In this document: piece by piece, positions 13,478-63,354 of the stretch
How the letters are laid out: every line of letters starts with the position of its first letter
Numbering within the stretch: position 1 is the first letter of the stretch
NCBI GenBank assembly: GCA_949746675.1
Contig: CATKDT010000043.1
Span: forward strand, 24,820-88,819
Reading direction: 5' to 3'
DNA length: 64,000 nt
Source: an uncultured Clostridia bacterium
GTDB lineage: Bacteria > Bacillota > Clostridia > TANB77 > CAG-508
The notes under the pieces: model-generated
What the model saw: the letters and a program-made list of their open reading frames with translations, nothing else
Told to the model about the DNA's origin: nothing
Databases searched by the model: none
Position numbers and translations under genes: made by a program

Positions 13478-13496
13478 TATGTGAAAGGATAAAATT

Positions 13497-15463: not shown

Positions 15464-18400
15464 ATGTCAAGAATATTAAACATAAAGGAAAATGTACTTA
15501 ATAAAAATGAATTAAAAGAATATTTGGCAAAACTTGCGTCAGACAATGTAATAACAAGTTCACCAGAAAAAAACACATATCCAATTCCAAGGTTAAAAGA
15601 AAACTGTGAGTATATATCATTAGTATATACTTTATTAAACAAGCACATAAAAATAGGAATACGAATACACTCAGCAGGAGAATGGATATTAGATAACTAT
15701 TATATAATTGAAAGAGCATATAAGATAATATCAAAGAATCTAACATTAAATAAATACATGAAGCTTCCAGGACTACGAAATGAAGGATTTGCAAGAATAT
15801 ACATGTTAGCAAATGAAATAATATCAAATACAGACGGAAAGATAAATCAAGAAGACTTAATAGAGTATTTAGAAAGTTACCAAACACAAAAAGAACTAGA
15901 AATGGAAGAAATATATAATATAGGAATATTTTTACAAATATGTATAATTGAAAAAGTTAGACGTATAAGTGAAAAAGTCTTTATATCACAGATGCAAAAA
16001 TATAAAGTAGATAATATAGTAGAAAGACTAATAGAAAATAAGCCAAGTAAGGAAATAAAATTAAAAGTAGAAGGCACATATCCATTTATTGAATATATGT
16101 CATACAAGTTAAAAAAGTATGGAAAAATATCAATTCCATACTTACAAATATTTGAAGAGCAAGTAAGAAAAATGGGACTAAGCGTGACTGATGCAATAAA
16201 CAGAGAACATTTTGATATAGCAGTAAAAAATCTATCAATAAAAAATAGTATAACAAGCTTAAAAATAATAGAAAGAATGGATGTAACAACAATATTCAAT
16301 AAGATAAATGTAGTAGAAGGAATACTTAATCAAGACCCATTGAATATCTACGAAGAGATGGATCATACAACAAAAGACTACTACAGACAAAAAATACTAG
16401 AACTATCTAAAAAAACTAAAGTATCAGAAATATTTATAGCAGAACAAGTATTAAAGCTTGCTCAAAATTCAACAAAAAACGATAAAATAGATGATTTGAA
16501 TGAAGAAACATCATATAACACCAAAGAAGAAATATTATCTCAAAATAACGAAAATAAAAACATATTAAGACAAAAAAAATCTCATGTAGGATATTACTTA
16601 ATAGATGAAGGAATAAATGAATTACTAACAATATTAGAACGAAAGAAAGTAAGGATAAAAACAGAAAAAGAAAGATCAAAAATATATATTGGGGCAATAT
16701 ACATGGCAACTATATTAATAACACTATTTTTATCATTAAAAATGGGTTATCTTGCATTACTATTATTCATACCAATACAAAATTTTGTAACACAAATAAG
16801 TCAATATATATTAAACAAAAAAGTACAATCAAAATTAATTCCAAAAATGGAAATACATGAAATACCAGAAGAATGTGCAACAATGTGTATAATACCAAGT
16901 GTTTTAAAGGACAAAGAAGACATCAAAGAAATAATAAACAAAATGGAAGTATACTATTTAGCAAACAAATCAAAAAACTTATATTTTACATTATTAGGTG
17001 ATTGTACAAGCGAAATGCAAGAAGTAACAAAAAACGACAAGGACATAGAAATAGAAGGAAAAAAGCAAGTAAAAAGACTAAACGAGAAATATGGAGAAAT
17101 CTTCTTTTTTGCATATAGAAAGAGACAATGGTGTAATACAGAAAGATGCTATATGGGCTGGGAGCGTAAGAGAGGAATGATTTCTCAATTCAATGAATTT
17201 TTAAAAATAGGAAAGTCAGAATTTAAAGTAAATACTTGTAAAAAGAATTTAAAGATTAAATATATAATCACAATAGACGAAGATACTAATTTAATACTAA
17301 ATTCAGTATTTAAATTAGTTGGGGCAATGGAACATATATTAAATAAACCAGAAGTCGACAAAATAAAAAATATAGTTACAAAAGGATATGGAATTATATC
17401 ACCTAGAATAGGATTAGATATAAACAGTGGAAGACAAACTACATTTACAAGATTATTTGCTGGAAATGGAGGAATAGATTTATATACAAATTCTATATCA
17501 GATGTATATCAGGATAATTTTAATGAGGGAATCTTTACGGGGAAAGGGATTTATAACTTAGACGTTTTTTACAAGATATTAAAAGATGAGATTCCAGAAA
17601 ATACAGTTTTAAGTCATGACTTAATTGAAGGAAGCTATTTAAAATGTGGACTAGCGACTGATATTACATTAATAGATAATTTCCCATCAAACTATATATC
17701 ATATAAAAAAAGAAAAGACAGATGGATACGAGGAGATACCCAAATATTAAAATGGATCAAATCAGAATTAAATGACTTATCAAAATATAAAATATTAGAC
17801 AATATATCAAGAAATTTAAATGAAGCATTTATATTTTTAACACTACTAATTGCAATATTAACTCAAAAGAACATAATAAACATAATAATTCCAATAATTT
17901 TACTTGCAGTTCCAATGATACTAAGATTATTTGACAACTTTGTACATCAAAGATGTGGAACACTAAAACACAAATTATTTGTATCAAATTTTTCAAAATG
18001 GAATCATTCAATATATAAGTTCTTAGTAGATTTTATAACATTGCCAGATATAGCATTTTTAGAATTAAGTGCAACATCAAAAGCATTATATAGAATGCAC
18101 ATATCACACAGTTTTTTATTAGAATGGACAACTGCGAGCTCAGCAGAAAATAATACAAATAATGACATAATTAGTTATATAAAATCAATGCAAATGCAGA
18201 TTATAATATCAATAATATTACTATTAAGTATATTTTTAAATATAATAAAAAATTTCAATATAAGTAATTTAATAGCAGCAATCTTTACGATAAGCTGGAC
18301 TTTAGCATTTTATCTAATGTACAATTTAGGAAAAACTAAGAAGACAAAAATAAACTTGGAACAAAACGAAAAAGAATACTTAACAAAAATAGCAAAGAAA

Positions 18401-30584: not shown

Positions 30585-30674
30585 ACTTTACGAACAAAAA
30601 TAGTGAAACAAATGATAAGGAAAGACGATTTCAATGTAAGGACTAATTATTCCTTAGAAAGAAGTGAGGCAAAG

Positions 30675-32876
30675 ATGATAACTTGGATTAAGAAAAATAT
30701 AAAAACACTAATTGTAGGAGTTGTAATATGGATACTAGGTATGCTATTTTTAGTAGCACCTCTAGCAGTATCTATTAGTGAAAGTACTACAAATAGTGTT
30801 TTTAATATTCAAACATTTTTAGGACAATTACCAAAAAACGTAACAAGTTTCTCATCAATAACAAAAACATTTAACAATGAAACAATTGGCATATTTGGAA
30901 AATGCACATTAGGTTATACTATTATAATAGCAATAGCTGTAGGAATTGGACTATATAAAGCACGTAGTAAAAGTGAATATGATAAAATAGAACATGGATC
31001 AAGTGATTGGTCACAAGGTGGAGAACAGTATAGGGTTTTAAGTAAAAATCAGGGATTAATACTTGCTGAAAATAATTACTTACCACTAAACAAAATAGGA
31101 AATGTAAACGTACTTATTGTCGGTGGATCTGGATCTGGTAAATCATCATCATATTCAATGCCAAATGCATATCAATGCTTAGGATCATATATATTTACAG
31201 ACCCAAAAGGAGAAATATATGATTCAACAGCTGGTTATTTGAAATCTAAGGGATATGAAATAAAAATATTAAACTTAGTAAATCCAACATGTAGTGACAG
31301 TTATAATCCAATCCAACATATCCAATCAGAAATAGATGTAGATATTATAGCAAATACAATTATTAAAGGACAAAAAACAGAAGCAACAAAATCATCAGAC
31401 CCATATTGGGACAACATGTCAGAATTATTATTAAAGGCATTAATATATTATTTATTAGCAAAAAGACCACCAGAAGAACAGAATTTAGCAAGTTGTGCAG
31501 AACTGGTAAGAGCGGCAAGCAAAAATGGAGACAGCAATCTATTATCAAACTTAATGAGTGAACTACCATATGATCACCCAGCAAGAATGAACTATAAATC
31601 AGTTGAACTAGCATCAGAAAAAACATATGGAACAATTTTAAGTTCACTTCAATCATCATTAGGAAAATTTGACTCAAAAGAAATAGCAGATGTTACATCA
31701 ACAAACACAATAGACTTTGACGATATAGCAAAAAAGAAAACAGCTTTATATGTTGTATCCTCAGACACACATGCAGCATATGACTTCTTATTAACAATAT
31801 TTTTCTCACAAATGATACAACAATTATATGACTTTGCAGACAGAAATGGTGGAAAGCTACCAGTGCCAGCATTCTTTATACTAGATGAGTTTGCCAATAT
31901 AGGTCAGGTACCAGACTTTGACAAGAAAATATCAACAAGTAGAAGTAGAGGAATATCATTTAGTGTAATATTACAAAATTTAGATCAATTAAAAGCAATA
32001 TATGATAAATCATATGAAACAATTATAGGAAACTGTGATACACACGTATTTTTAGGAAGTAACTCATATGAAACAGTAGAATACTTTTCAAAAGAATTAG
32101 GTGAAAAAACAATATCACATAATAGTAAAACCATGAATAGAAACAATGACTCAGTACGTACAGGGTATAGTGAATCAGATCAAATAATGGCAAGAGCACT
32201 TATGACACCAGATGAACTAAGAAGAATGGATAATAACGAATGTATTATATTTGAAAAAGGATTAAAGCCAATAAAAGCAAAGAAATTTTGGTATTACAAA
32301 AAGCCTAATATAGTTAGAGATTTTAATAATAATAGACTAAACCACAATGACTATAAAGTAGCAGATAGAGGAGAATGGAGAAAATTCAATCCAGCAAATC
32401 CATATACTGAAAAATCAGAGGATAACAAAGAATTAGAAATAGGAGCACTTGACAACTTATTTAGCGAAATTGAAACACCTACAAATAAACAAGGTGATAC
32501 TATAAATGAAATTAAATCTCAAGATGCTTCTACAATATCAAACACAAGTATAACTAAATCAAATTCTACAATGCAAATAAATGGAATAAATAATAACAAT
32601 AGTGATATAGCAAATACTATTAAACCAAGTGCAGAACCAATAATCAAGCAGGCACAGCAATCATCAGTAAACATTAATAATACAACACAAGAACAAATAG
32701 AAAATGTTGGAGCAATACCAAAAGAAACACCAACTAATACTGAACAATCTATAGTGCAATCACAAAATCAATTTAATAATTTAAAATCAGTAGACCAAAC
32801 TAACGAAGAAGAAGTAGATATACAAAAAGAATTAGAAGCAAAATTTGATGAGTTATTTGGAAACTTAAATGATTAA
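30675..32876 (+). CDS. VirD4/TraG-type type IV secretion coupling protein-like ATPase (orphan)
   Basis: Two N-terminal TM helices, Walker A VLIVGGSGSGKSSS, TDPKGE, Walker B FFILDEFANIG, then SRGISFSVILQNLDQL. A long N/Q/S/T-rich acidic C-terminal tail follows. The ATG at 30675 follows GTGAGG; the track ORF opens at GTG 30603. Confidence 0.85.
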   Translation: MITWIKKNIKTLIVGVVIWILGMLFLVAPLAVSISESTTNSVFNIQTFLGQLPKNVTSFSSITKTFNNETIGIFGKCTLGYTIIIAIAVGIGLYKARSKSEYDKIEHGSSDWSQGGEQYRVLSKNQGLILAENNYLPLNKIGNVNVLIVGGSGSGKSSSYSMPNAYQCLGSYIFTDPKGEIYDSTAGYLKSKGYEIKILNLVNPTCSDSYNPIQHIQSEIDVDIIANTIIKGQKTEATKSSDPYWDNMSELLLKALIYYLLAKRPPEEQNLASCAELVRAASKNGDSNLLSNLMSELPYDHPARMNYKSVELASEKTYGTILSSLQSSLGKFDSKEIADVTSTNTIDFDDIAKKKTALYVVSSDTHAAYDFLLTIFFSQMIQQLYDFADRNGGKLPVPAFFILDEFANIGQVPDFDKKISTSRSRGISFSVILQNLDQLKAIYDKSYETIIGNCDTHVFLGSNSYETVEYFSKELGEKTISHNSKTMNRNNDSVRTGYSESDQIMARALMTPDELRRMDNNECIIFEKGLKPIKAKKFWYYKKPNIVRDFNNNRLNHNDYKVADRGEWRKFNPANPYTEKSEDNKELEIGALDNLFSEIETPTNKQGDTINEIKSQDASTISNTSITKSNSTMQINGINNNNSDIANTIKPSAEPIIKQAQQSSVNINNTTQEQIENVGAIPKETPTNTEQSIVQSQNQFNNLKSVDQTNEEEVDIQKELEAKFDELFGNLND

Positions 32877-39914: not shown

Positions 39915-40668
39915 ATGTTACAAACATCATTATTAGGACTATTCTTTGGAACCGTAGGCACAACAATAGGAGGACTTATAGGAATAATATCAAAAAGAAA
40001 CTCAAACAAATTTATAAGTTTTATATTATCATTTGCATCAGGACTAATGTTATCAATAGTATGTTTCAACCTAATTCCAGAAGCAATGGAAACATCAAAC
40101 ATATACACAACAATACTAGGAATATCACTAGGAGTAGTAATTATGATACTATGCGACATAGTAGTAAAAAATATATTTAATCAAAAGACGAATGAATTAC
40201 AGCAAAATACAGTTCAACAAAAAAACAATAATAGTCTATTAAAAACAGGAATAATAATAACACTAGGAATAGCATTACACAATATACCAGAAGGTTTAGC
40301 AATAGGATCAGGCTTCGAAACATCTGCAAAACTAGGACTATCACTTGCAATAGCAATATGCATGCATGATGTTCCAGAACGGAATAGCAATGGCAATACC
40401 ACTAAAAAATGGAGGAATGAATAAAATAAAGATAATAATATACATAATATTATCAGGAATAGCAACAGGAATAGGAGCAACTATAGGAGCATTAATAGGA
40501 GAAATATCAACACAAATAATAGCAATTTCGTTAGCATTTGCAGGAGGAGCAATGCTATATGTAGTATCAGGAGAACTAATTCCAGAATACAACAAACTAT
40601 ATAGTGGAAGAACAAGTTCATTAGGAATAATATTAGGATTTTTATTAGGAATATTATTTAGAAGCTAA
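39915..40668 (+). pseudogene. zupT: ZIP family (ZupT-like) metal transporter interrupted by a 1-nt frameshift
   Basis: The first ORF ends ...AIAICMHDVPERNSNGN*. The second frame continues GIAMAIPLKNGG.... Deleting C40380 restores the conserved HDVPEGIAMA motif, which parallels the upstream HNIPEGLAIG. Confidence 0.75.
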
Positions 40669-40981: not shown

Positions 40982-41010
40982 TTGACTTTTAAATATATAA
41001 ATAGTACAAT
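40982..41010 (+). promoter_or_regulatory. Sigma-A type promoter for pcrA with a ~180-nt leader
   Basis: TTGACT (40982-40987), 17-nt spacer, TACAAT (41005-41010). Confidence 0.55.
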
Positions 41011-41075
41011 AACAAAGCAAACATAAGTTTAATAAAACTATAAAAAGTAACATAAATATAAGAACTTCTCTCCGT

Positions 41076-41190
41076 ATTTGTCAACGAAAATCATGGACGA
41101 CGATGAACGAACCACAAAAAAGAAATATCAGATGAGATTTCCAAAGAAAATCACGAATGATGATGAACGAAGCGAAGTGTAGCGAAAGGA
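41076..41190 (+). repeat. Leader repeat family, locus A (two tandem ~60-nt units ending in the pcrA Shine-Dalgarno)
   Basis: The cores TCATGGACGACGATGAACGAAC (41091-41112) and TCACGAATGATGATGAACGAAG (41151-41172) are exactly 60 nt apart. Related units occur at 47433-47559 and 56786-56854. Confidence 0.7.
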
Positions 41191-46510: not shown

Positions 46511-46607
46511 TAGAAATAAGTAAAAAATTAATTAACAAATTATAATAAAAAAAAGCTAAAAATGCAATAAGTAAACTAAGTTAGTGAAAGGGACGGTAAC
46601 TGAATAA

Positions 46608-47432
46608 ATGAAAAATAGCAAAACAGGAACAGTAGGAATAACTATAACTGTTATAGTATTAATAATAATTATAATACTATCAAACATAGGAACAGAACGA
46701 ATGGACGTAATGAAAAATGGAATATCAAAAATATTCATGCCAGTCCAAAATGCATTTGTATTTGTAAAAAACAAAATAACAGGAAATGAACAAGAAATAA
46801 GTGACATAGCACAATTAAAAGAAGAAAACAAAAAACTTAGAGAAGAAAACACAAAACTAAAACAAGAAGAAAGAGAATTAGAGATACTAAAATCTGAAAA
46901 CAACACATTAAAGGAATATTTAAACCTAAAAAATAAATATGGAAACTACAATACAATACCAGCATACTTAATAGAAAAAACATATAGTAACTATGAAAAA
47001 GTAATAGTAATAAATGTAGGAAAAAAAGATGGTATAAAAGTAAACATGCCAGTAATATCAGAAGCTGGACTAGTAGGACATATAATATCAGTAACAGACA
47101 GTACAGCAAAAGTACAAACAATACTTGACACAGCAAGCAATGTAAGTTCTGAGATATCAACATCAAATCAAAGCATATTAATAAAAGGAGTACAAGGCAA
47201 CAACAAGCAAGTAAGAGCAACAAATATACCAGCAGAATCTACCCTAATGCCAGGTGACACAGTAGTCACATCAGGACTTGGAGGAATATATCCAAAAGGA
47301 ATATTAATAGGAACAATAAAAGAAGTAATAAACACAAAAAATGAAATGGATAGATATGCATATATAGATGCTGTGACAAATTTCGACAAATTGTCAACAG
47401 TACTAGTTATAGCAGGAAATCAAGACTCATAA
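46608..47432 (+). CDS. mreC: Rod shape-determining protein MreC
   Basis: 274 aa with an N-terminal TM, a coiled coil (LKEENKKLREENTKLKQEE), and the beta-domain motifs GLVGHI and VVTSGLGGIYPKGILIG. Confidence 0.9.
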   Translation: MKNSKTGTVGITITVIVLIIIIILSNIGTERMDVMKNGISKIFMPVQNAFVFVKNKITGNEQEISDIAQLKEENKKLREENTKLKQEERELEILKSENNTLKEYLNLKNKYGNYNTIPAYLIEKTYSNYEKVIVINVGKKDGIKVNMPVISEAGLVGHIISVTDSTAKVQTILDTASNVSSEISTSNQSILIKGVQGNNKQVRATNIPAESTLMPGDTVVTSGLGGIYPKGILIGTIKEVINTKNEMDRYAYIDAVTNFDKLSTVLVIAGNQDS

Positions 47433-47559
47433 GAATTGTCAGACGTTATTTTCGAAAAAAATAATGGATGAAGATGAACGAGCAAAGCCAAAAAGAATTG
47501 CCAAACAGTTTTTTAAGAAAAAACTGGATGGCGATGAGCTAACTTCAGTGAGTGAAAGG
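47433..47559 (+). repeat. Leader repeat family, locus B (two tandem ~62-nt units filling the mreC-mreD spacer)
   Basis: The units start GAATTGTCAGACG (47433) and GAATTGCCAAACA (47495). The hairpins are TTATTTT/AAAATAA (47446-47464) and CAGTTTTTT/AAAAAACTG (47506-47526). The cores are TAATGGATGAAGATGAACGAGC and AACTGGATGGCGATGAGCTAAC. Confidence 0.7.
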
Positions 47560-47567
47560 AAGATACT

Positions 47568-51793: not shown

Positions 51794-54700
51794 ATGCAAA
51801 AATACACACTAAAAATCGTGGCAATATTAACCACACTATTACTAGTTGGAACAATGTTCATTCCAACACTTGTATACGCCAGTGAGGAAATACAAGACCA
51901 AAAAACAAGTCAAGAAAACGTATTATTTAATGCTACTGTACAAAACAAATATGAGGCAAAACTAAATTTATTGGCAGAATCAACACTTGAACTAAATTTA
52001 TCAGTAAAAAACACAGGATATCTAAAAGACATAAACGTAACACTAGAAGGAAATAACTATGACCTAGTAACAACAAAGGAACCAGAACAAAGTTTAGATA
52101 TACTAACAGTTGATGAGCAAACAACATTAGAACAACAAATATCAAGTCAAATGCCAACAGGAGCATTAGACACAATACAAGGAAATACGAATAACGTAAA
52201 TGAGGATGCATTAAAAAATGCAACTATGGGTGGAAGTATTATAAATCAAACAGAAAATAAGCAACCAGTAGAAGGAAATACACTAACAGAAGAAATAAAA
52301 AACAATATTACAGAAACAAATGACAATCAAAACAAAATAAAAGCAATAAAAGAAAATGTAATAGAACTAAACGAAATAAAATTTGGTGAAACAGCAAACA
52401 TAAAACTTCCAATAAAATTTAAAGAAAATGATAAAATATCTGTAGACGAATATAACAAAGAATCTACAGTAACTTTGAGTGCAATTTACGTAAATGAAAA
52501 AGGAAAAGAAAAGAAAGTAACAAAAACAATAACACACAAAATAGAATGGACACTTGACGTAACAGAAAAAATTGAACAAAAACTAACAAGATACTTAAAA
52601 TACAATAACAACACGATGATAGGTGTAGAAATTAATGATGAGATAGAACCCAATAACTTACCTATAACAAAAAAAGAAATAAGCATAATCACTCCAAAAG
52701 TAAATAATATAAATCCAGAAAAAATAATAGCACTAACAGAAAATGCAGAATACAAATATGAAAATGGAATAGTAACAATAATACAAGAAAGCAAACCTGA
52801 CAATGAGGGCAAAATTTCTATAAACTCTAAGGGAACATACAGACTAATATATATATATAATACACAAGTAGAAGAAATAAAAACTATTGAAACATCAGCA
52901 ACAGCTCAAATAACAACAATAAAAGAAGACACTGTTACAGGAACAACAACACAAAACACATTTGATGTAACAGAACAAATAGGAAGCTTAGTAGACTTAG
53001 AAACAATAAAACCAGAAAGCATAAGTAAAGGGTATATGTATACAAATTTAAATAAAAGCGAAAACAAACTAACAACAAGCTATGAAGAAAAATACAATGT
53101 AAATATTGGACTAGCAGAACTAGTAGACAGAATAACAATAGAACAAAAAACAAACTCATTTACAACAGAACAAGGATATTATGATATAACAGACAAAATA
53201 ACAACAAAGAAAATAAAAGTAGAAAACCTTGAAAAAATACTTGGAGTTGATGGAAAAATAACAATAAAAAATCAAGCAGGAGAAGAAATAGCAGCACTAA
53301 GTAAAGAAAAGCAAGAAGCAGAAATCACAGAATCAATATTAACAATTGAAACAACAAAACCAATAGCAGAAGGAAATCTACAATTTACACTATTAAAAGA
53401 AATATCAGGAGATGTAGGCTTAAATATAGAAGAATTAAAAACAATAAACAAATTAACAACACAAATAAATGTAAAAGGCTACAAAGGTGAAATAGAAATA
53501 TCAAATCAAGAAAAAACAGACGAGATAGCACTAGAAAGTCCAAAATCAACAGCAACACTAGAAGTAAGTCAAAGCACACTATCAACAGTAACAGAAAACA
53601 AAGACATAATATTCAATGTAGTACTTAACAAAAGTAGCATTGAAAACGCACTATACAAAAATCCATCAATAAAAATAACACTACCAGACCAAGTAAAAGA
53701 AATAAAAGTAAAAGACGCACGTGTTTTATATGAAAACGAAATATCAGCAGGCTCAATAAATACTGACAACAACACAATACAAGTAAACTTACAGGGAACA
53801 CAAACAGAATACTCAAGTTCAGCAACAGAAAAAGGATCATTAGTAAGAATAGTAGCAGACATAAAACTTGACAACTTAGCAACATCTGATAATGGAAATA
53901 TAAAATTAAACTATGCAAACGAAGCAACAGGAGAAAATAATACAATAGAAGGAACAATGAAGGTAGAAGCACCAACAGGATTTGTAACAACAAACACAAT
54001 AAAAATAGATGATAAAGAAGCAACAGCAGTAGAAAGCAACAATGATGATATAGAAATAGCAAGAACAGCAGAAGAAAGAAAAATGCAAATAAAAGGTGTA
54101 ATAATAAACAATCTAGGAAATAATGCAGAAGGACTAACAATAATAGGAAGAATACCATTCCAAGGAAACAAAACATTAGAAGGAAAAGACTTAGGAACAA
54201 CAGTTGATACAACACTAAGCACAGCAATAGCAGTAACAGGACTAGAAAACGCATTAGTATATTACAGTGATGACAAAGAAGCAGGAATAACTACACAAAA
54301 CTGGAGTACAGAACCAACTACAAGCTCAAAAACATACAAAATAGTAGCAAATACACCATTAAACGACAAAACAAAAGCAGAATTTAACTATGAAGTAACA
54401 GTTCCAGCAAATTTACCAGCTTCAAGTGCAATAAAAGAAAACTATGGAGTATATTACAACAACAACTCAGTAGATGGAATAAAAACAAACCTAGTAGAAG
54501 CAAAAACAGTAGGAGCATCAACATCTGGAATAGCAGATATTGAAACAGGACTAGAAATATTTGACACAAACACTGGAGTACAAATTCAAAATGAGGGACA
54601 AGTAACAGAAGGAGAATACATCACATACAGAATACGTATACGTAATAAAGGAAGCAAAAATGCTGAAAATGTAAAAGTAAAAGCAACATTAGCAAATGGG

Positions 54701-56776
54701 TTAAAACCAATAAAACTATCATTAGGAACAGACATTGACCCAATAAGATCATACATAATAGACAATTCAGACGACTTAACAAGAACAATTCCATTAATAA
54801 AACCAGGAGAAAGCTACTTTGCATACTATGACGTATTATCAGGAAAAACACTAAACGCAGAAAATGCAGAAGAAAACCAATATATATCAAAATTTAGAAC
54901 AACAATAAACAATGATGACACAAATGGAGACGAAATAGAAAGCAAAGTAAATTTAACAGAAGGATATTTAAACTTAAAATTAACATCAGATTTACAATCA
55001 ATACTAGAATCAAATCTAGTACTAGAAAATAGAGAATTTAATTATGTAGTAGACTTATATAATGTAAATCGAAAAGAAAAAAATAATGTAACATTAAAAC
55101 TACAACTACCACAAGGAATAGAATTTGTAAGTTCAGAAACAAAAGCAAGCTATGATAAAGGAACAAACACAGTAACTTATAGCATCGGACAAATGCAAGG
55201 AGGAGACAGCAAGAGAATACTAACAAAAGTAAAAATAACAACAAAAGACACAAGCAAGCTAGAAGCAGTTGCAACAGTAAAATGTGCTGAAAACAATGCA
55301 GAAATTAAATCAAATCCATTATCAGTAGGAACCAGTTCGTTAGAAAAAGACGTAGAAGTAATACAACGTTTAAGTGTTGAAAGTGGAAAAATAATGGACA
55401 CAGATACAGTAGAAATATATGTAGATGTAAAAAACAACACAAATGGCAAACTAGAACTAGTATATAACAATTCAATGCCAAAAGAACTAGACGCACAAAA
55501 ATCACAAGTAATAATAGACAATAAAGTACAATATGAAACAACAGCAAACTATATAAACATGCCAATGACACTTGAAAAAGGACAATCAGGAAGATTCTTA
55601 ATACAAGCAAAAGCACGTACACAAGCAAAAGACAGTACAATAACAGTTGAAAGCGCACCAACACTAAAAACAATAAATGGGCAAGAATTAACAGTAAATA
55701 CAGTAAAACTACAAATCCAAGGAACAGGAAACTTCTCATCAGGAAATAATACAAATGGAACATACAACATCCAAGGAACAGCATGGTTAGACACAAACAA
55801 CAATGGTAAAAAAGAACCAGAAGAAGAACGACTATCAGGAGTAGAATTACAGTTATATGATGGAAAGAAAGGCGAACTAGTAAAAGACTCAGATGGAAAT
55901 ACAATAACAGTTACAACAGGAAATGAGGGAATCTACACATTCAAAAGTCTAAAACCAGGAAAATATAATATAGTAGCAAATTATGATACTAGAAAATACG
56001 ATCTAGGACAATACAAAGTAGAAGGAGTAGCAGAAGGAGAAAACTCAGACTTCGTACTAGCAACACTACAAGGAAAAGAAGTTGCATCAACAGACGCAAT
56101 AACAATACAAAATGCAAACATCTATAATATAGACCTAGCACTAGTTGATAAAAATACATTTGACTTAAAACTAGACAAAACAATAACAAAAATAGTAGTA
56201 ACAAACTCAAAAACTAATAAAACAAACAACTATGACTTCAACTCAAATGTAGCAAAGGTAGAATTAGGTGGAAGCAATGTAGAATACAACACAATATTAG
56301 TAGAATACAAAATAACAGTAAGTAATATTGGACATGTTGCAGGATATGCAAAATCAATAGTAGACTATTTACCAAAAGACATGACATTTAGTTCAGAACT
56401 AAACAGCTCATGGTATACAGAAAGAGATGGAAACGCATACAACACAAGTTTAGCAAACACACTAATAAATCCAGGAGAAACAAAAGAAGTAACACTAGTA
56501 TTAAGCAAAAAAATAACAGGTGAAAACCTAGGAACAATCAGAAATACAGCAGAAATTGCAGAAAGCTACAATGAATATAGTATAAAAGACATAAACTCAA
56601 CAGCAGGAAACAAACAAGATGGAGAAAATGATATGTCCTCAGCAGATGCAATTATAGGAATGAGCACAGGTAGAGAAATAATAAAAGTAACAGGAATATC
56701 AATAGGACTACTTGCATTAATTGCATTAGCAGTATTCTCAATGAAAAAAATAATAATGCCAAAATTTACACTATAA
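51794..56776 (+). CDS. Giant secreted surface protein / putative adhesin (DUF11-type and SdrD-B/Cna-B-like repeats, C-terminal membrane anchor)
   Basis: 1660 aa with signal peptide ...PTLVYA|SEE. DUF11-like segments include GEYITYRIRIRNKGSKNAENVKV. An SdrD B-like segment reads GTAWLDTNNNGKKEPEEERLSGVELQLYDG...GIYTFKSLKPGKYNI. The C-terminal tail is GMSTGRE, then a hydrophobic helix, then MKKIIMPKFTL. Confidence 0.8.
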   Translation: MQKYTLKIVAILTTLLLVGTMFIPTLVYASEEIQDQKTSQENVLFNATVQNKYEAKLNLLAESTLELNLSVKNTGYLKDINVTLEGNNYDLVTTKEPEQSLDILTVDEQTTLEQQISSQMPTGALDTIQGNTNNVNEDALKNATMGGSIINQTENKQPVEGNTLTEEIKNNITETNDNQNKIKAIKENVIELNEIKFGETANIKLPIKFKENDKISVDEYNKESTVTLSAIYVNEKGKEKKVTKTITHKIEWTLDVTEKIEQKLTRYLKYNNNTMIGVEINDEIEPNNLPITKKEISIITPKVNNINPEKIIALTENAEYKYENGIVTIIQESKPDNEGKISINSKGTYRLIYIYNTQVEEIKTIETSATAQITTIKEDTVTGTTTQNTFDVTEQIGSLVDLETIKPESISKGYMYTNLNKSENKLTTSYEEKYNVNIGLAELVDRITIEQKTNSFTTEQGYYDITDKITTKKIKVENLEKILGVDGKITIKNQAGEEIAALSKEKQEAEITESILTIETTKPIAEGNLQFTLLKEISGDVGLNIEELKTINKLTTQINVKGYKGEIEISNQEKTDEIALESPKSTATLEVSQSTLSTVTENKDIIFNVVLNKSSIENALYKNPSIKITLPDQVKEIKVKDARVLYENEISAGSINTDNNTIQVNLQGTQTEYSSSATEKGSLVRIVADIKLDNLATSDNGNIKLNYANEATGENNTIEGTMKVEAPTGFVTTNTIKIDDKEATAVESNNDDIEIARTAEERKMQIKGVIINNLGNNAEGLTIIGRIPFQGNKTLEGKDLGTTVDTTLSTAIAVTGLENALVYYSDDKEAGITTQNWSTEPTTSSKTYKIVANTPLNDKTKAEFNYEVTVPANLPASSAIKENYGVYYNNNSVDGIKTNLVEAKTVGASTSGIADIETGLEIFDTNTGVQIQNEGQVTEGEYITYRIRIRNKGSKNAENVKVKATLANGLKPIKLSLGTDIDPIRSYIIDNSDDLTRTIPLIKPGESYFAYYDVLSGKTLNAENAEENQYISKFRTTINNDDTNGDEIESKVNLTEGYLNLKLTSDLQSILESNLVLENREFNYVVDLYNVNRKEKNNVTLKLQLPQGIEFVSSETKASYDKGTNTVTYSIGQMQGGDSKRILTKVKITTKDTSKLEAVATVKCAENNAEIKSNPLSVGTSSLEKDVEVIQRLSVESGKIMDTDTVEIYVDVKNNTNGKLELVYNNSMPKELDAQKSQVIIDNKVQYETTANYINMPMTLEKGQSGRFLIQAKARTQAKDSTITVESAPTLKTINGQELTVNTVKLQIQGTGNFSSGNNTNGTYNIQGTAWLDTNNNGKKEPEEERLSGVELQLYDGKKGELVKDSDGNTITVTTGNEGIYTFKSLKPGKYNIVANYDTRKYDLGQYKVEGVAEGENSDFVLATLQGKEVASTDAITIQNANIYNIDLALVDKNTFDLKLDKTITKIVVTNSKTNKTNNYDFNSNVAKVELGGSNVEYNTILVEYKITVSNIGHVAGYAKSIVDYLPKDMTFSSELNSSWYTERDGNAYNTSLANTLINPGETKEVTLVLSKKITGENLGTIRNTAEIAESYNEYSIKDINSTAGNKQDGENDMSSADAIIGMSTGREIIKVTGISIGLLALIALAVFSMKKIIMPKFTL

Positions 56777-56785
56777 TTTAATTAT

Positions 56786-56854
56786 AATTGTCAAACGTGA
56801 TTTTCAAAAGAAAATCACAGAAGGCAATGAGCAAAATAAAATGAAGCGAAAGGG
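56786..56854 (+). repeat. Leader repeat family, locus C (single unit between the two surface-protein genes)
   Basis: AATTGTCAAACG box, then a perfect 9-bp hairpin GTGATTTTC-AAAA-GAAAATCAC (56797-56818), ending ATGAAGCGAAAGGGAGG, which supplies the SD of the next gene. Confidence 0.65.
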
Positions 56855-56862
56855 AGGAAAAT

Positions 56863-59800
56863 ATGAGAACAAAGATAAAATGTAGCAACATACTAAAAAT
56901 AATAATACTAACATTATTCGTAGGTATTGCGCTATCATTTTCTAAATCTTGGGCTATGCCAAGTAAAATGGAACTAGACGTAAGAAGCAACTCAATCAAA
57001 GGAACAAATGCTGATAATCCTGGATATGCACCATTCTATTGTATGTTCCATGGACGAGCATTAACATACTTTAACAAGCCAAATGGTGGAGGCTCAAGCT
57101 CAAGTGTTTCAACAAGTACGTCAGGAGCTGTAAGTAGCCAAACTGGAACATCACAAATGTCAGTTGCAGGCACACTAAACAATTTCTTATCAATGATGCA
57201 ACAAATGCCATATAATGAAAACGTTAGAGCAGCTATGGCAGCAGATCCAGGAGCAGGTGGAGGAGGATATACTCCAACAGTTGGAGCTGACGAAGCAACA
57301 GGAGACCAAGATATAGATAACTTCACAAAAAGTGAAACAGCACTAACATGGAGTGAATATATATTACAATATGAACTACATAATGCAGAAATAGAACCAT
57401 CAGTTGGATATGCACTATACTATTCAATGAATATAATGGGAATAAATCCATCACAAACATTCTATATGGATTTCCAATATGTAGTATGGTCATCTAGAAA
57501 CTGGGGAAATGACTCAAACATGTTAGACGCAGGATCAGCAAGAGCATCATCAGCACCTACAATGGCTAGTAACACACGTGCAAGAGCGCACCAATATGGA
57601 CAAGTATATTATCATATATTAAGATATGATATACAAAATCCAGACTCAATGTTTAAAATAACACCAGATGACCCAGACACACCAGATGACAAACTAAAAG
57701 TAATGGTAGACAAAACAACAGGGCTATATACAGTAGGACCATATAAAATGGAATGTGTCTATGGAGACAAAGCAGATTGGGAAATACTATATAACGAGAT
57801 AACAGGAATAGGAAATCAAGGCTTTGATAAAAAAGTAAGATTTGCAGAATACCGTAGAATAACAAATTTAAACTTTGATGGACAACCAGAAGAAATAGAA
57901 AAAGTAGAATTTTTAAGAGAAGACGGAACTAAATTTATAGATGACCCAGATGGAACAAACTTCCCAGATTTCGTAAATCAAGAAAACTTCTACATTAGAT
58001 TTAAACCAACAGAAGAAGGGGCAATAAATAGATTATCACAAGACTTAAATGACTTAAATCCAGTAATACACGTAGGATATATTAGCGGATTTACAACATC
58101 AATAAGAGCAAGATATGACAGTACACAATTACAAGCACATGAAGTACATGGAGGATTTACAGCAGGAGAAAGCTTAAGCTCTGGAATGATAAGCTGGTTT
58201 ATAGTAAAAGCAGACGCATCAGTACCACCAGAATGTAAATACAAAGCAGATAGCGTATCATGGACAGATCCTGAATATACAATGCAATATCATATCGGCG
58301 CTAGCACTCAAACAGTATATGGAACAACAGACATAACATTTAAGTTAACTTATACAACAAGTGGAGGAGGAGATCCACATACAGTAGAAGTAAAATTTGA
58401 GGGTGTGCGAATATACCAAATAATATCAGGCCATACTTGTCATTGTCCTTGTGATCATGCTAATGGAAGCTGTTCGCCAGACTATAGATATTATGACTCA
58501 GACTTATCACCAAGTGGATGGAAATTTGTTGGAGAGGACAAAACATCAGATGATATAAAAGTAGATGGTGTATCAGTACAACCACTAGCAAAACTTGTAA
58601 GTGAAATAGACAGATTTAAGAGTGTTCAAAAATTAGACTTAGGTATATATGGAGACGTAAAAGTAAACGAAACAGCAGTAAAAGTTGGTGGAAAAAGAAT
58701 TAATATGATGCTAGGCGGATATGTGTGGGTAGACTCAGGAGACGCAAAAACAGCAAGTTTTGATAACTTAAGAGACACACGTTCACAACAAGAATACAAC
58801 AACGGAGCAGGAGACGAATACTTCAAAGACTACAGCTATAGAGGTTTCTGGGATACACCAAATGACAAAGACAAAAACTTCTGTGGAATACTAGTAGAAC
58901 TATATGACACACAAAAAGACCCAACAACACCAATAGCATATACAACAACCGATAAATTTGGTAGATACAGATTCTATGGACTAGCTGAAGATCCAGGAAC
59001 AAACCAAGTACGCTCATTAGTAAACCCACTACATGACTACTTTATAAAATTCAAATTTAATGGACAACTATACACACAAGTAGAAAGTAACAATGATGGA
59101 AAATATGCTAAATGGACAAATGGAGGAGAAGGCAAGAACTCTAGTGCAGACGAGATAACTGGACAAGGAGGAGAAGCTGCAGAAGACACTCCATTTAGCA
59201 GAAAAACAATAAACGACAGATTCGAAACAATAAAATCATTATATGATGGAGGAACACCAGCATCAGGAGCAGACAACAATAGTTATGAAGGAACAGAAGG
59301 CAAAAACAAAGCATATGCAATGTATCAAAAGATAGAAACATCATATGGAGAATTCAGTGACCAGAATAGACTAGACGGAGAAGAGCCAAAATATGTCCAT
59401 GGATATGGAAGTTTCCTTGACAAGTGGGCATATGCATATGGTGATGCATGGGATGACTTCATATATAAAGCAACAAACACAACAAACTTCGAAAATCCAG
59501 ACTATATGGACTGTACAAAAACATGGTTTGACGGTGACTATAAAGCCTCAGACGATGTATATGTAAGAAAACTAGAAGAAGTAAAAGCATTATGGGGATA
59601 TGATGGAGAAAATGCTGCAAAATTCCTAAATGACTGCTTAATGAAAGCAAAAACAATATCACCAACATATACAATACCAGGAGACTATGACCAATTTGTA
59701 ATCAACAACGTAAATGAACAACTAGTAGAACAAGCACCACTATATGACCCAGACTTAGCAGCAACATACTGGGCAACATTCAAAAATCTATATACACAAC

Positions 59801-62800
59801 AATCAGATCAAAGTAGATATATAAATTATGGTGTACATGAACGTCAAAGAGCAGACTTAGCAATACAAAAAGACGTATTTAATGCAAAAGTAATAGTAGA
59901 TGGTGAGCTTGAAACATATGACTACAGATCAAAAAATATGGAAGAACAAGCTCAAGACGAAGCATATGATCCAACAAAAGACGAAACAACATGGAATATC
60001 TACAAAAGAAGAGAAGACATTCTATATAAATTACACCAAGAAAACGGAACAGACAGACAATCAGGAGAAACAGGCTTTGTACATCCATTAGAGATACGTC
60101 GTTCAGACTACTTAAAAACATGGACAGAAGCAAATGAATTAGACAAAAACTTAAAGATATTAATCACATATAGAATAGCAGTCAAAAACCAAGGATCAGT
60201 ACCAGTAAAAATAAATGACTTAATAGACTACTATGACAGCGATGAAATGGAATTTGATGGTGTACTTAATGGAGACACATATACACCAACAAAATACAAA
60301 AAATATAGTGATGATGGAACAGGTTCTGTAACAGAAGAATACATTAATACATTTATAAGCTCAGGAATGGACGGAGAAAACGAAGGAGACTTAACAGTAA
60401 AAACAACAGGATATGACGGAAGAGCAGCAAGAACCTTAGCAGGAGAGCAAATAGACTCAGGACTATCAAACGAATACAAATACTATTATGACACATTATT
60501 CTTAAGCAATATAAATGGTGGACAAGAATTAGAACCAGGAAAAATCACATTTGCCTACATATCATTTAGAGTAAAGAATCCAGAAGTAACAAGATTTAAA
60601 TACTCAAAAATAAAAGACAAGCCGATACTAGATATCACATTTGACAGTGAGGAAAACCTTGTTGGAAAACGTAATATAATTGAAGTAAACTCTTACTCGA
60701 CACCAAAACAAAATGACGATATAAACTACGGATTTGTAGACATTGACTCATGTGCAGGAAGCTTAGATGACAATGACTTAAACAAAGAAACTGGTAACAT
60801 CAAGATAAACAATGATCCACTAAAAGACCACCAAGAAGATGATACTGACGAAGCTCCGAACCTAAGAATACGTATATCTACAAACGACGACACTAGAATA
60901 TACTCAGGATATGCATATGAAGACAACAGAAATGAGGTAAAAGACAAAGCCGTAGTAGGAGATGGTGATTACTCAGACGACGAAACAAAAATAGATGGTA
61001 TAACAATGCAAATATATCAATTACAAAGAGAAGTAGATAGTGAAGGAATATTTACAGGAAAATACAATGCAAGTGCAAAGAGACTACAACAATATAGATT
61101 TACAGCACAAGACGAATCAAACACAGGATTAGTAGAAACAATCACAGACCCTAGATACAAAACAGGTACAGGAGAAGCAAACATACTATTTGACTCAGAC
61201 ATACCAGCATTAAAAATAGGTGACCTACCATATGTTGAAAGTGGAAAAGGTGGATACACATACGCATCAATTCCATCAGGAGACTACTTCATAAGATTTA
61301 TATATGGTGATACCTATGAAACAGTATTAACAAACGATGAGACAACAGTCGGAAAAGAAGTAAAAGATCTAGGATTATCAGCAATGACATATACACAAGA
61401 CCAAGAAGGAGTTGTAAACAAACCATCAAATGCAGTAGACAATACAGGCGGTTCAGAAAGCATACAAGCAAAAGGTCTAAACGCAAGATCATATAATGGA
61501 CAAGACTATAAATCAACAGTATATCAAGGACTTGACACAGGAAAAGCAATAGACCAAGGTGACATATTCTATAATGGAATCAATGGATACCAAGATTATA
61601 ACAAACAAAACTACTCAAAACTATCAGGAGGAAACTACGATGTAGTAGATGACTCAGATACAAGCGCATCATATAAAGACTATGTAAAAGTAAATGATGA
61701 TGGAAACGAAAAAGACTTAATGTATGCATATGACTTCAAAAAAGGTGATGCAGGATCAGCAGGACTTTCAGATGCAAAAGACGTTTACTATTATAGATGG
61801 AAAGCAAACAACTATGGTAGAGGAACACAATTTGAAGGAAATCCACAAAAAACACAAAGAAATACTCTAATGGAAATACTAGACTCTTGGGAAAAAGTTC
61901 AAACATACCAAGAAGGCGATGTAAAAGCAAGACAAGAAAGTATGTTAAAAGAACTTATGTCTCAAACACAAATGGTATCACAAACAGGTATTTTAAGCAC
62001 AAAAGGAGAATATAACACAACATATACGGGAGAACAAGGATTTGAATCAGGCGTAAACAATATTGACTCAGACACACACGAACACGGATATATCTTAAAA
62101 AATCTAAACCTTGGACTAGTAGAAAGACCAGAAGCTCAAATGAAATTAACAAAGAAAATAACAAACTTCCAAGTAACATTAGCAAATGGTAGAGTATTAT
62201 TTGACGCAAGTAAATCAGTTAGAAACTTATATATGGCAGAACATAAAGGACATATGGCATTCTTTGTAAACAATGATGCAGAAAAATATCCAACATGGCC
62301 TGCAAAAACAGTAGAAGAACTACGTGCAGAAAAAGAAAACTTATATAAAAATCTTGGAAATGAGACAGCGTTAAGAAGACTTGCAGCAGTTGTAACCTCA
62401 GCAAACTCAAAAGAAACGCCAGAATTACTACAAGTATACATGGATGATGAATTAATGGAAGGCGCAATGATGAAAGTTAGATATGACTTCTTAATTGAAA
62501 ACGCTAGTGAAGTTGATTACCTAGACAAACAATTCTACTACACAGGAAGAACAGCACACGCAGGAGACGACAATTATGTATCAAGAACAAACGCATACAC
62601 AGTAGTAGACTATGTAACAAACATGATAAGATATGATCAACAATATCAAGACCAAAAGAATGGAAACCCAATAGTATGGTCTGCAAAAAATCTAAATGAC
62701 TTAATGAACTCATCAACAGTAGACGCAAGTGGAAACGTAACAATTGGAAATGATGGAACAGGTGAAGACCTAGGAGATGGAAACATCACAGCAAATAATG

Positions 62801-63354
62801 CAAGCTCATATAGAAGAGACTTAGTAAACAGAAAATATGCACCTATTATAAAAACATACAATCAAATTCTAACAACTGACTCTTTAAGAGATAATACAAT
62901 TGAAACATCATTATTACCAATAAAATACTTTAGCAGTGATAATGAAGCCAAAACAGAAGGAAGAGGCGTTCATACAACAACACTAGTTCTATCAACAGAA
63001 TTATCAACAAACAACACAGGAGACAACTTAGTATACAACAACTTAACAGAATTAGTCGAAACACAAAACACAGTCGGTAGAAGAATGCAGTTCTCAATTA
63101 TAGGTAACCAATCAATGTCAGACCAAAGTCTAAGAAACGATGCAAGCATTACTGAAGACTCAAGCGAAGACTTAGTAACACCTACCGAAATTGACGCCGA
63201 CAGTGCTCAAAAGATAGTAATCACAAAACCTACTGGTGAATTCAGAAACTACACACCATGGATAATCACAGCAATTGCAGCATTTGCAATCATTGCAATA
63301 TCAGCAGTAGTAATAAGTGTAAAAGTATTAGGCGGAAATAAAGCTAAAAAATAA
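56863..63354 (+). CDS. Giant secreted surface protein / putative adhesin (possible N-terminal thioester domain, SdrD-B/Cna-B-like repeats, C-terminal sorting-signal-like tail)
   Basis: 2163 aa with signal peptide ...SFSKSWA|MPS. SdrD B-like segments include GGYVWVDSGD...GILVELYD...DKFGRYRFYGL and YAYEDNRNEV...DGITMQIYQL. The tail is ITKPTGE, then a hydrophobic helix, then GGNKAKK. Confidence 0.8.
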   Translation: MRTKIKCSNILKIIILTLFVGIALSFSKSWAMPSKMELDVRSNSIKGTNADNPGYAPFYCMFHGRALTYFNKPNGGGSSSSVSTSTSGAVSSQTGTSQMSVAGTLNNFLSMMQQMPYNENVRAAMAADPGAGGGGYTPTVGADEATGDQDIDNFTKSETALTWSEYILQYELHNAEIEPSVGYALYYSMNIMGINPSQTFYMDFQYVVWSSRNWGNDSNMLDAGSARASSAPTMASNTRARAHQYGQVYYHILRYDIQNPDSMFKITPDDPDTPDDKLKVMVDKTTGLYTVGPYKMECVYGDKADWEILYNEITGIGNQGFDKKVRFAEYRRITNLNFDGQPEEIEKVEFLREDGTKFIDDPDGTNFPDFVNQENFYIRFKPTEEGAINRLSQDLNDLNPVIHVGYISGFTTSIRARYDSTQLQAHEVHGGFTAGESLSSGMISWFIVKADASVPPECKYKADSVSWTDPEYTMQYHIGASTQTVYGTTDITFKLTYTTSGGGDPHTVEVKFEGVRIYQIISGHTCHCPCDHANGSCSPDYRYYDSDLSPSGWKFVGEDKTSDDIKVDGVSVQPLAKLVSEIDRFKSVQKLDLGIYGDVKVNETAVKVGGKRINMMLGGYVWVDSGDAKTASFDNLRDTRSQQEYNNGAGDEYFKDYSYRGFWDTPNDKDKNFCGILVELYDTQKDPTTPIAYTTTDKFGRYRFYGLAEDPGTNQVRSLVNPLHDYFIKFKFNGQLYTQVESNNDGKYAKWTNGGEGKNSSADEITGQGGEAAEDTPFSRKTINDRFETIKSLYDGGTPASGADNNSYEGTEGKNKAYAMYQKIETSYGEFSDQNRLDGEEPKYVHGYGSFLDKWAYAYGDAWDDFIYKATNTTNFENPDYMDCTKTWFDGDYKASDDVYVRKLEEVKALWGYDGENAAKFLNDCLMKAKTISPTYTIPGDYDQFVINNVNEQLVEQAPLYDPDLAATYWATFKNLYTQQSDQSRYINYGVHERQRADLAIQKDVFNAKVIVDGELETYDYRSKNMEEQAQDEAYDPTKDETTWNIYKRREDILYKLHQENGTDRQSGETGFVHPLEIRRSDYLKTWTEANELDKNLKILITYRIAVKNQGSVPVKINDLIDYYDSDEMEFDGVLNGDTYTPTKYKKYSDDGTGSVTEEYINTFISSGMDGENEGDLTVKTTGYDGRAARTLAGEQIDSGLSNEYKYYYDTLFLSNINGGQELEPGKITFAYISFRVKNPEVTRFKYSKIKDKPILDITFDSEENLVGKRNIIEVNSYSTPKQNDDINYGFVDIDSCAGSLDDNDLNKETGNIKINNDPLKDHQEDDTDEAPNLRIRISTNDDTRIYSGYAYEDNRNEVKDKAVVGDGDYSDDETKIDGITMQIYQLQREVDSEGIFTGKYNASAKRLQQYRFTAQDESNTGLVETITDPRYKTGTGEANILFDSDIPALKIGDLPYVESGKGGYTYASIPSGDYFIRFIYGDTYETVLTNDETTVGKEVKDLGLSAMTYTQDQEGVVNKPSNAVDNTGGSESIQAKGLNARSYNGQDYKSTVYQGLDTGKAIDQGDIFYNGINGYQDYNKQNYSKLSGGNYDVVDDSDTSASYKDYVKVNDDGNEKDLMYAYDFKKGDAGSAGLSDAKDVYYYRWKANNYGRGTQFEGNPQKTQRNTLMEILDSWEKVQTYQEGDVKARQESMLKELMSQTQMVSQTGILSTKGEYNTTYTGEQGFESGVNNIDSDTHEHGYILKNLNLGLVERPEAQMKLTKKITNFQVTLANGRVLFDASKSVRNLYMAEHKGHMAFFVNNDAEKYPTWPAKTVEELRAEKENLYKNLGNETALRRLAAVVTSANSKETPELLQVYMDDELMEGAMMKVRYDFLIENASEVDYLDKQFYYTGRTAHAGDDNYVSRTNAYTVVDYVTNMIRYDQQYQDQKNGNPIVWSAKNLNDLMNSSTVDASGNVTIGNDGTGEDLGDGNITANNASSYRRDLVNRKYAPIIKTYNQILTTDSLRDNTIETSLLPIKYFSSDNEAKTEGRGVHTTTLVLSTELSTNNTGDNLVYNNLTELVETQNTVGRRMQFSIIGNQSMSDQSLRNDASITEDSSEDLVTPTEIDADSAQKIVITKPTGEFRNYTPWIITAIAAFAIIAISAVVISVKVLGGNKAKK

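Follow-up and report, generated by a model that had tools for sequence, protein, structure and literature searches.

A hairpin-forming repeat module inserted beside Shine-Dalgarno sequences in gut Clostridia

What are the short tandem repeats that precede pcrA in an uncultured Clostridia bacterium, and why do they end exactly at the Shine-Dalgarno (SD) sequence of the gene? We analysed a 64,000-nt stretch of contig CATKDT010000043.1 (GenBank assembly GCA_949746675.1, positions 24,820 to 88,819 of the forward strand), hereafter the window. An initial annotation of its letters had described two units in the pcrA leader, with cores at 41091 and 41151 spaced 60 nt apart, and had listed two more units at 47433-47559 and one at 56786-56854. 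The coordinates and sequences it quoted are correct, and the additional copies are real by inspection of the sequence, by nhmmer and by covariance model (CM). Here, we show that the units form a genuine family of ~57-60-nt hairpin-forming repeats, apparently undescribed, that the hairpin is maintained by compensatory change, and that the modules are insertions gained in this lineage beside a pre-existing SD. Our best explanation, to which we assign a probability of roughly 0.6, is a lineage-restricted, copy-number-variable structured repeat module that would be co-transcribed and act in the mRNA as a recognition site.

Repeat units and the hairpin they form

The window has a GC content of ~28% and a strongly A-rich + strand, in which chance A-rich repeats are frequent (70-79% identity over ~50 nt), and we therefore tested the family explicitly. 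Five related units lie at three loci, all on the + strand: A1 and A2 in the pcrA leader, B1 and B2 in the mreC-mreD spacer, and C in the spacer before a surface-protein gene (Table 1). With one locus left out at a time, nhmmer ranks the held-out locus straight after the training copies (E = 8e-6 to 3e-3), noise starting at E ~1. A covariance model, R1, run over the window with filters off picks out the five units and nothing else, in each case on the + strand. The scores are 51-72 bits for four of them and 21 bits for the degenerate A1; the next-best match reaches 17 bits. The ~60-nt family proposed for the pcrA leader is thus genuine. The hairpin of A2 is poorly paired (z ~0), and A1 keeps its 3' tail GAUGAACGAAC and both strands of the outer stem (UUUGUC...GACGA) while its inner hairpin is reduced to 16 nt, with half of it gone. 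A supposed weak relative at 25353-25424 is matched by neither nhmmer nor CM and shares with B2 only the tail AGTGAAGTGAAAGGAAGATA (AGTGAAGTGAAAGGAAGATAyTAtg); its 3' part may be the relic of a unit or just an extended SD.

The module of 57-60 nt is one extended hairpin on the sense strand. Its outer stem of 6 bp (UUGNCA/UGNCGA) has a U-G wobble that 103 of 109 copies conserve and leads into a 2x2 internal loop, usually GA opposite GA (77 of the 110 distinct copies that we aligned to the model). A closing C-G pair, an inner A/U stem of 8-9 bp and a GAA(A) loop follow, and the purine-rich 3' tail AUGARCGAA is essentially invariant. Across the same 110 copies an AAGA 5' of the hairpin is conserved. 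B2 illustrates the arrangement with an outer stem of 7 bp, a 2x2 internal loop and an inner stem of 9 bp. Both of the sequence boxes from which the layout was first described exist; however, TTGYCA, the 5' box, pairs with the TGGATGnnGATG box, and the two are the strands of a single outer helix. A divergent subfamily found 5' of rplR has continuous A-U pairs in place of the internal loop, which makes the long helix, and not the GA loop, the shared feature.

Compensatory change supports this fold. Among 45 diverse copies, 93.1% of cells are paired, compared with 40-64% when the 3' partner is slid along the alignment, and 9 pairs carry two-sided changes, a number reached by 0 of 500 shuffles. 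The 110-copy alignment gives 92.4% paired cells (39-62% with the partner slid) and two-sided changes in 11 of 15 pairs, again reached by 0 of 500 shuffles; its inner helix is 98% paired, and position 11-47 of the outer helix is mostly a purine-purine mismatch (G-A or swapped A-G), otherwise U-A, C-G or G-C. The differing yet complementary arms first noticed in the window, GTGATTTTC/GAAAATCAC, CAGTTTTTT/AAAAAACTG and GTTATTTT/AAAATAAT, are real instances of such change. The alignment also holds 148 G-U cells against 6 A-C cells, so that the structure can form on the sense strand only. Hence the hairpin is maintained by compensatory change, with G-U tolerated on the sense strand only, and the units have a secondary structure on the transcribed strand that is backed by covariation, one mark of a structured cis-acting RNA.

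The same alignment bears on the suggestion that the units are double-stranded DNA operators, bound by CodY or by another regulator of A/T inverted repeats. The units do hold an A/T-rich inverted repeat, and those from human-gut species come within 2-4 mismatches of the CodY consensus. In the window units, however, the best match to the CodY box (AATTTTCWGAAAATT) has 5-7 mismatches, which is background (mode 6), and the arms vary freely yet stay complementary. The 148 G-U against 6 A-C cells are unexpected for a duplex-DNA site, the conserved parts are asymmetric flanks, and many copies lie inside operons, far from promoters. We consider an operator highly improbable. The outer stem could also be read as the terminal inverted repeats of a MITE (miniature inverted-repeat transposable element), yet the excess of G-U over A-C points to a single-stranded fold of one strand rather than a symmetric site in duplex DNA.

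Might the units be coding, for short acidic peptides (MDDDER.../MDEDER...) that act as leaders or small proteins? In the window, open reading frames (ORFs) of 29 and 35 codons do cover the two tandem pairs, the latter ORF has as its end an ATGA that overlaps the mreD start, and the 60-nt spacing of units is divisible by 3. Against this, no SD precedes these ORFs, the presumed start position is ATG in 3 of 110 units and TTG in 95, and the frame that the initial annotation had pointed to contains a stop in 47 of the 110; none of the frames stays open throughout the units. Copies differ by indels of 1-2 nt, located in stem, loop and tail, that put them out of frame with one another (the contig L034 has a 1-nt indel of this kind), and in A2 and B2 the two unit halves belong to different frames. 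There is, in our judgement, very little chance that the units are coding.

Several other identities were tried and rejected. A promoter within the unit was considered, and TTGTCA-N16-18-AATAAT in B1 and C is no commoner than in shuffled sequence; the human-gut unit consensus has no -10, and judging from these sequences the unit itself is probably not a promoter. By inspection, the tail GAUGAGCGAA is without the CUGAUGA core and stem II of a hammerhead, and the internal loop is symmetric and without the 3-nt bulge of a K-turn. Rfam 15 gives no match to the units in the window at the gathering threshold and none on any unit at E <= 1 in ten loci with canonical units, in agreement with the earlier failure to assign a named riboswitch or leader family; the sole Rfam/ARAGORN matches in the window are a tRNA-Ser (CGA) at 817-909 and a small signal recognition particle RNA at 1859-1954. 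A first pattern retrieved 10 random matches from viral contigs, none with the hairpin, and the human-gut consensus retrieved 0 matches there. A two-unit array had no blastn match in phage and plasmid collections, and the units did not turn out to be a known insertion sequence (IS) or MITE end in any collection searched. A literature search by keyword and sequence string gave no description of this repeat family.

Table 1. Repeat units and associated features of the window. MFE, minimum free energy; HMM, hidden Markov model; z, fold z-score.
Feature	Position	Strand	Basis and remarks
Promoter-like site for pcrA (TTGACT, 17 nt, TACAAT)	40982..41010	+	Consensus scan 10/12, pattern match only
Unit A1, degenerate	41071..41116	+	R1 21 bits, E = 0.004; nhmmer leave-one-out E = 8e-6 to 0.015
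Unit A2	41118..41176	+	R1 54.4 bits; hairpin ~41126-41162, weakly paired in this strain
Terminal tail GTGTAGC and SD GAAAGGA (SD 41184-41190)	41177..41190	+	Sequence; pcrA ATG 41200
Unit B1	47429..47487	+	R1 72 bits; extended hairpin 47435-47475; MFE -10 kcal/mol, z = -2.7
Unit B2	47491..47547	+	R1 65.4 bits; extended hairpin 47497-47535; MFE -20.5 kcal/mol, z = -4.6
Terminal tail GTGAGT and SD GAAAGGA (SD 47554-47560)	47548..47560	+	Sequence; mreD ATG 47568
Unit C	56781..56840	+	R1 51.2 bits; extended hairpin 56787-56828; MFE -15.2 kcal/mol, z = -4.4
Terminal tail ATGAAGC and SD GAAAGGGAGG (SD 56848-56857)	56841..56857	+	Sequence; ATG 56863
Tail-like sequence only (cACAGTGAAGTGAAAGGAAGATAT)	25395..25424	+	Tail pattern match; 5' of gene starting 25430; no HMM/CM match

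Gain of modules beside pre-existing Shine-Dalgarno sequences

Why do the units end at an SD? Syntenic contigs of relatives, reached through MreD homologues, answer this for the mreC-mreD spacer, which B1 and B2 fill in the window from the mreC stop codon (47430-47432), where B1 begins, to the mreD start. The spacer holds an SD only in the relatives at 62% MreD identity (L036, 13 nt), 74% (L035, 14 nt), 83% (L038, 22 nt) and 90% (L041, 15 nt, TAAaGAAAGGGaaaaacaATG); it has 75 nt and one unit at 93% (L040), and 135 nt and two units in the window itself (100%). The mreC-mreD units thus number 0, 1 and 2 at MreD identities of 90%, 93% and 100%, a presence/absence polymorphism at orthologous sites. 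The four empty sites read TAA..GAAAGGA..ATG; as they still carry the GAAAGG SD, the SD belongs to the host, and the module went in immediately 5' of it. Similarly, the surface-protein gene spacer measures 13-17 nt in relatives and 86 nt in the window, and a model search of 80 kb of the relatives' synteny found no unit besides the one in L040. The modules are therefore insertions gained in this lineage beside a pre-existing SD. The view that a unit ends at the SD was right as to position, but the SD is not part of the unit, since GAAAGGA-type SDs occupy the same positions in relatives without units.

The insertion falls between the stop codon and GAAAGG, and AAG recurs at both unit ends in an A-rich context; comparison of empty and filled sites (L041 with L040 and the window; L038 with the window) shows no clear target duplication. 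Unit C separates the surface-protein genes for a 1660-aa and a 2163-aa product.

These comparisons bear directly on whether the units are conserved, gene-specific regulatory leaders (riboswitches, attenuators or ribosomal-protein leaders) that serve pcrA, mreD and the surface-protein gene. The units are indeed structured and do lie in 5' untranslated regions (UTRs) and intercistronic spacers. However, the orthologous leaders of syntenic relatives are without units, which already contradicts such a reading, copy number differs between strains, and the same module precedes ~50 functionally unrelated genes among the matches listed. No Rfam family matches, and the SD is unsequestered in predicted folds: when A2, B2 and C are folded with tail and SD, a purine-only linker leaves the SD unpaired. 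A gene-specific leader hence seems scarcely tenable. The proposal of a conserved cis-acting RNA holds for the structure, which covaries, and fails for the pcrA and mreD leaders, which are not conserved as such, the orthologous spacers being 13-22 nt long and without a unit. That close relatives gain, lose and vary units argues for a spreading structured repeat instead of gene-specific leaders.

Strains of the same species add a further observation. Identical PcrA protein is encoded on contigs of the metagenome-assembled genome (MAG) assemblies GCA_949279975.1 and GCA_948915975.1 and of ENA and Logan assemblies, and the same-species contigs (L001-L005) are 99.8-99.9% identical to the window, which makes them useless for covariation. 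In two of them, L004 (4420-4440) and L005, the 5' strand of A2 differs by five single-nucleotide polymorphisms (SNPs) within 12 nt (window equivalent 41112-41126) that restore the canonical AATTGTCAGAT, in strains that are otherwise 99.8% identical. This cluster looks like gene conversion from another copy.

Some features of the surrounding genes may be recorded here. An SD of the type (G)TGAAAGGA/GAAAGGG is usual in this genome, including before genes without units (window 13470-13496, 46580-46607, 8130-8156 and 25407-25419), and presumably matches the extreme 3' end of 16S rRNA. The Zip-family transporter gene (39915-40668) is split into overlapping ORFs of 169 aa and 92-100 aa, likewise in all same-species contigs, and may be a fixed frameshift or a pseudogene; it is intact, at 247 aa, in L036. 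In L035 (4051-6317) pcrA has the opposite orientation to that in the window and is predicted as two ORFs, of 663 aa and 100 aa, and a sortase gene takes the place of the tyrS, YkuD and Zip genes. A gene for a TraG/TrwB-type coupling protein (T4SS-DNA_transf, TraG-D_C) lies beside housekeeping genes at 30603-32876 and may be the remnant of a conjugative element. Three ORFs of the window are very large: 15464-23620 (2718 aa), 51794-56776 (1660 aa) and 56863-63354 (2163 aa). The 1660-aa product has SdrD_B and CLIPPER matches, and the 1660-aa/2163-aa pair stays adjacent in relatives.

Spread in gut Clostridia and a possible role in mRNA

How far does the family extend? Our scan of a genome collection used a pattern (ATTGYCARAY...) fitted to the window subfamily, and hence missed the human-gut subfamily (TTTGGCAGAC); of its 19 matches, true copies occur only in the mouse-gut MAG MGBC129337, with a single unit separating rpsF from ssb and a pair of units preceding a 523-aa gene. 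A scan of metagenome contigs with a terminal-unit pattern that required the SD-proximal tail gave at least 120 loci, and a profile built from eight mouse-lineage units alone recognises units in 88 of 120 metagenome loci among the matches listed. The human-gut consensus is CCAAGAUUUGGCAGAC-AAAAUUUU-GAA-AAAAUUUUG-GAUGACGAUGAGCGAAAC(G), and exact-sequence look-up identifies the carriers as Clostridium sp. CAG:389, CAG:470 and 28_17.

An array has 1-4 head-to-tail units, all of a single module type, and closes with a short tail of ~14-16 nt. The last unit is followed by GAAGUGA(A)GCGAAAGGA, with the start codon 6-10 nt further, and a GTGA(A)GYGAAAGG tail stands after the last unit of nearly all arrays; in the pcrA leader, GCGAAAGGA lies at 41182-41190, 9 nt 5' of the ATG. 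Among the matches listed there are ~50 distinct downstream genes, including rpsQ, rplR, adk, murI, pheT, obg, jag, hsp33 and genes for DNA polymerase III alpha, ABC ATPases and membrane proteins, and every copy lies in sense, with an SD and a start codon after it. Arrays also occur within ribosomal-protein operons (S10/spc/alpha). Most start 0-50 nt past the upstream stop codon, which at some loci lies inside the first unit. Private variants are common to the units of one array, for example GACUAAAUUUUU in both units before one gene, and indicate that arrays grow by local duplication. Arrays are kept 5' of jag, rpsQ, adk, murI and other genes across human-gut species whose third-codon-position identity is 0.64-0.84; leader identity in these pairs is mostly 0.82-0.90, and the stems differ yet stay complementary.

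Three details of these loci deserve mention. At L057, L111, L082, L096, L118 (first unit), L054, L138 and L139, the last codons of a gene substitute for the 5' strand of a unit. At ~10 of ~50 distinct loci listed (e.g. L019, and L057 with MSERK...), the terminal tail (GTGAGCGAAAGGA) has a GTG from which the reading frame runs into the downstream ORF without meeting a stop, and gene callers could start a gene there and predict N-terminally extended proteins. The 90%-identity cluster of the 87-aa S17 protein also holds unrelated membrane proteins of 159-196 aa, an apparent clustering artefact.

What might such a module do? As the initial annotation had argued, placement past a promoter or inside operons suggests that units are transcribed in sense; the promoter-like site upstream of pcrA would place A1 and A2 within the pcrA 5' UTR. 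A helix of ~16-18 pairs with a conserved wobble and base and an invariant single-stranded tail is, moreover, the kind of target that a sequence- and structure-specific protein or endoribonuclease might read. In the explanation that we favour, the module, inserted in sense between the upstream stop codon (or promoter) and the host SD, is extended to an array by local duplication, and the GTGA(A)GC tail joins the last module to the host GAAAGG-type SD. Presumably co-transcribed with the downstream gene, the hairpin with its sequence-specific base and tail could then be the recognition site for a protein or an endoribonuclease. Modelled on the RNase III hairpins of phage T7 early genes, the outcome might be intercistronic or leader processing, 5' stabilisation or factor docking, while the structure-free purine tail would keep the SD accessible.

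Several points weigh against this explanation. Conservation of the leaders exceeds that of third codon positions by a modest margin only and in one rpsQ pair falls below it; the fold of A2 is no better than that of shuffled sequence (z-score -0.05). As the metagenome pattern required the tail, the SD adjacency of the 88 loci is partly ascertained; ~13 arrays found without that requirement (those of the window, L019, L034 and L040, and secondary arrays in the same loci) are all SD-adjacent and in sense. In three sets of contigs (L047, L070, L120, L113 and L148; L054, L138, L139 and L099; L057 and L131), one upstream flank is joined via an array to different downstream genes, namely murI, rpsQ, a 575-aa gene and adk. 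These joins are likely short-read assembly chimeras across arrays, or alternatively real recombination, and contigs of this appearance weaken the counts of copy number and context. Arrays lie on the G-rich (coding/leading) strand in 67 of 67 loci, so that orientation and GC skew cannot separate a role in mRNA from one in single-stranded DNA (ssDNA) of the lagging-strand template. Finally, the mRNA-level role that we propose, whether processing, stabilisation or docking, is an inference.

Could the units instead be a selfish DNA element without RNA function? The hairpin would then form in the ssDNA of the lagging-strand template, where a trans-acting enzyme would use it as substrate; an HUH/Y1 transposase of the IS200/IS605 or RAYT type is one example. 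The preferences of this enzyme for strand and target would set orientation and position. Units are gained and lost between close relatives with no evident benefit to any gene class, and all arrays occupy the lagging-strand template strand for co-oriented genes. Conserved hairpin flanks and tolerated G-T recall REP and IS608 ends as generally known, AAG occurs at unit junctions, before most units and at their ends, and the five clustered SNPs between strains suggest copy-to-copy conversion. On the other hand, no transposase turned up, in carrier genomes that are fragmentary and in which no search for one was made, and the empty and filled sites reveal neither terminal inverted repeats beyond the hairpin nor a clear target-site duplication. 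REP and MITE copies usually lie 3' of genes and in both orientations, whereas every copy here is directly 5' of an SD; arrays have also been kept at corresponding sites in species that have diverged, their stems changing in compensatory fashion, and lie inside ribosomal-protein operons. We regard a purely selfish element, the main rival, as possible, though on balance unlikely.

More speculatively, the modules might represent a new class of element that targets ribosome-binding sites (RBSs). It would insert precisely 5' of the SD in sense, amplify in place by an SD-reading mechanism (e.g. through an ssDNA or RNA intermediate) and dock a dedicated host factor in the mRNA, and would thus be a portable, copy-number-tunable translation or stability module of reduced-genome gut Clostridia, in use even within ribosomal-protein operons. 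We put this forward tentatively, as a rather doubtful extension.

The carriers are abundant uncultured Clostridia of the human and mouse gut (CAG:389/CAG:470-like), in which post-transcriptional control is almost unstudied. Should the modules act in mRNA, they would provide a natural portable RBS-context element with tunable copy number and a handle on a new RNA-binding protein or nuclease; should they be purely selfish, SD-adjacent targeting would be a new insertion specificity. Arrays probably also cause chimeric joins in short-read metagenome assemblies.

Comparison with known systems

REP, BOX and Correia elements are well-known dispersed hairpin repeats. For sense-only, SD-adjacent variable arrays in essential operons (ribosomal-protein, adk, murI, pheT, mreD), we found no described counterpart. 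We know of no sequence relationship between the units and BOX, from which they are set apart by description. Like the units, the BOX elements found in Streptococcus pneumoniae, a low-GC Gram-positive bacterium, are short repeats dispersed between genes, with a tandem module in variable number that is co-transcribed, has RNA structure and encodes no protein (PMC3049150). BOX, however, is built from three different modules (boxA-boxB(n)-boxC), in either orientation and without a fixed relation to the SD, whereas the units have one module type plus a tail, abut the SD and lie in sense. REP/BIME sequences with RAYT in Enterobacteria and Pseudomonas resemble the units as imperfect palindromes of ~35-60 nt with conserved flanking bases, present in tens to hundreds of copies, often intercistronic, transcribed and with a hairpin kept by compensatory change; mobilisation at the ssDNA level is conceivable for both. 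REPs have a high GC content and a RAYT gene to which they are tied; they are located 3' of genes and often form inverted pairs (REPINs). The units, in contrast, are A/U-rich and all their arrays are direct, in sense and 5' of an SD and start codon; no RAYT was identified, and no protein census of the carriers was made.

Further parallels come from structured RNAs. The RNase III sites of T7 early genes are intercistronic hairpins of unique sequence rather than a repeat family. They share with the units a length of about two helical turns, an internal loop and a position just 5' of the RBS of the next cistron; the units differ in forming an A/U-rich repeat family with ~16-18 pairs, and their cleavage is putative. 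ToxI of type III toxin-antitoxin systems occupies a single locus directly 5' of the toxin gene, with a terminator between. It likewise consists of head-to-tail structured RNA units, each with a site for sequence-specific processing or recognition, whereas the units occur at dozens of loci 5' of housekeeping genes, with no toxin.

With BOX, REP and TAACTGA, the closest known kinds include one from Cluster K mycobacteriophages, where SAS and ESAS form an asymmetric repeat in one orientation, a few bases 5' of the start codons of many unrelated genes, that overlaps the SD and in some copies has an upstream inverted repeat (PMC3203893). SAS is 13 bp long and itself the RBS region, the inverted repeats of ESAS were found not to support RNA pairing, and the role suggested lies in translation initiation or the binding of a factor (PMC3203893). 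In contrast to the units, SAS/ESAS belongs to a phage genome context and has no tandem arrays and no evidence of insertion polymorphism (PMC3203893). The TAACTGA direct repeats of Beggiatoaceae and cyanobacteria also form many tandem sets of uniform orientation, located between genes or promoters and start codons; they have been proposed to constitute a post-transcriptional network; their units are 7 nt long and without a hairpin, and their carriers belong to a different phylum from those of the modules described here (PMC4679880). Neither BOX nor REP, SAS or TAACTGA unites a hairpin backed by covariation with arrays of direct repeats, an orientation that is strictly sense and a position strictly adjacent to the SD, as the gut Clostridia modules do.

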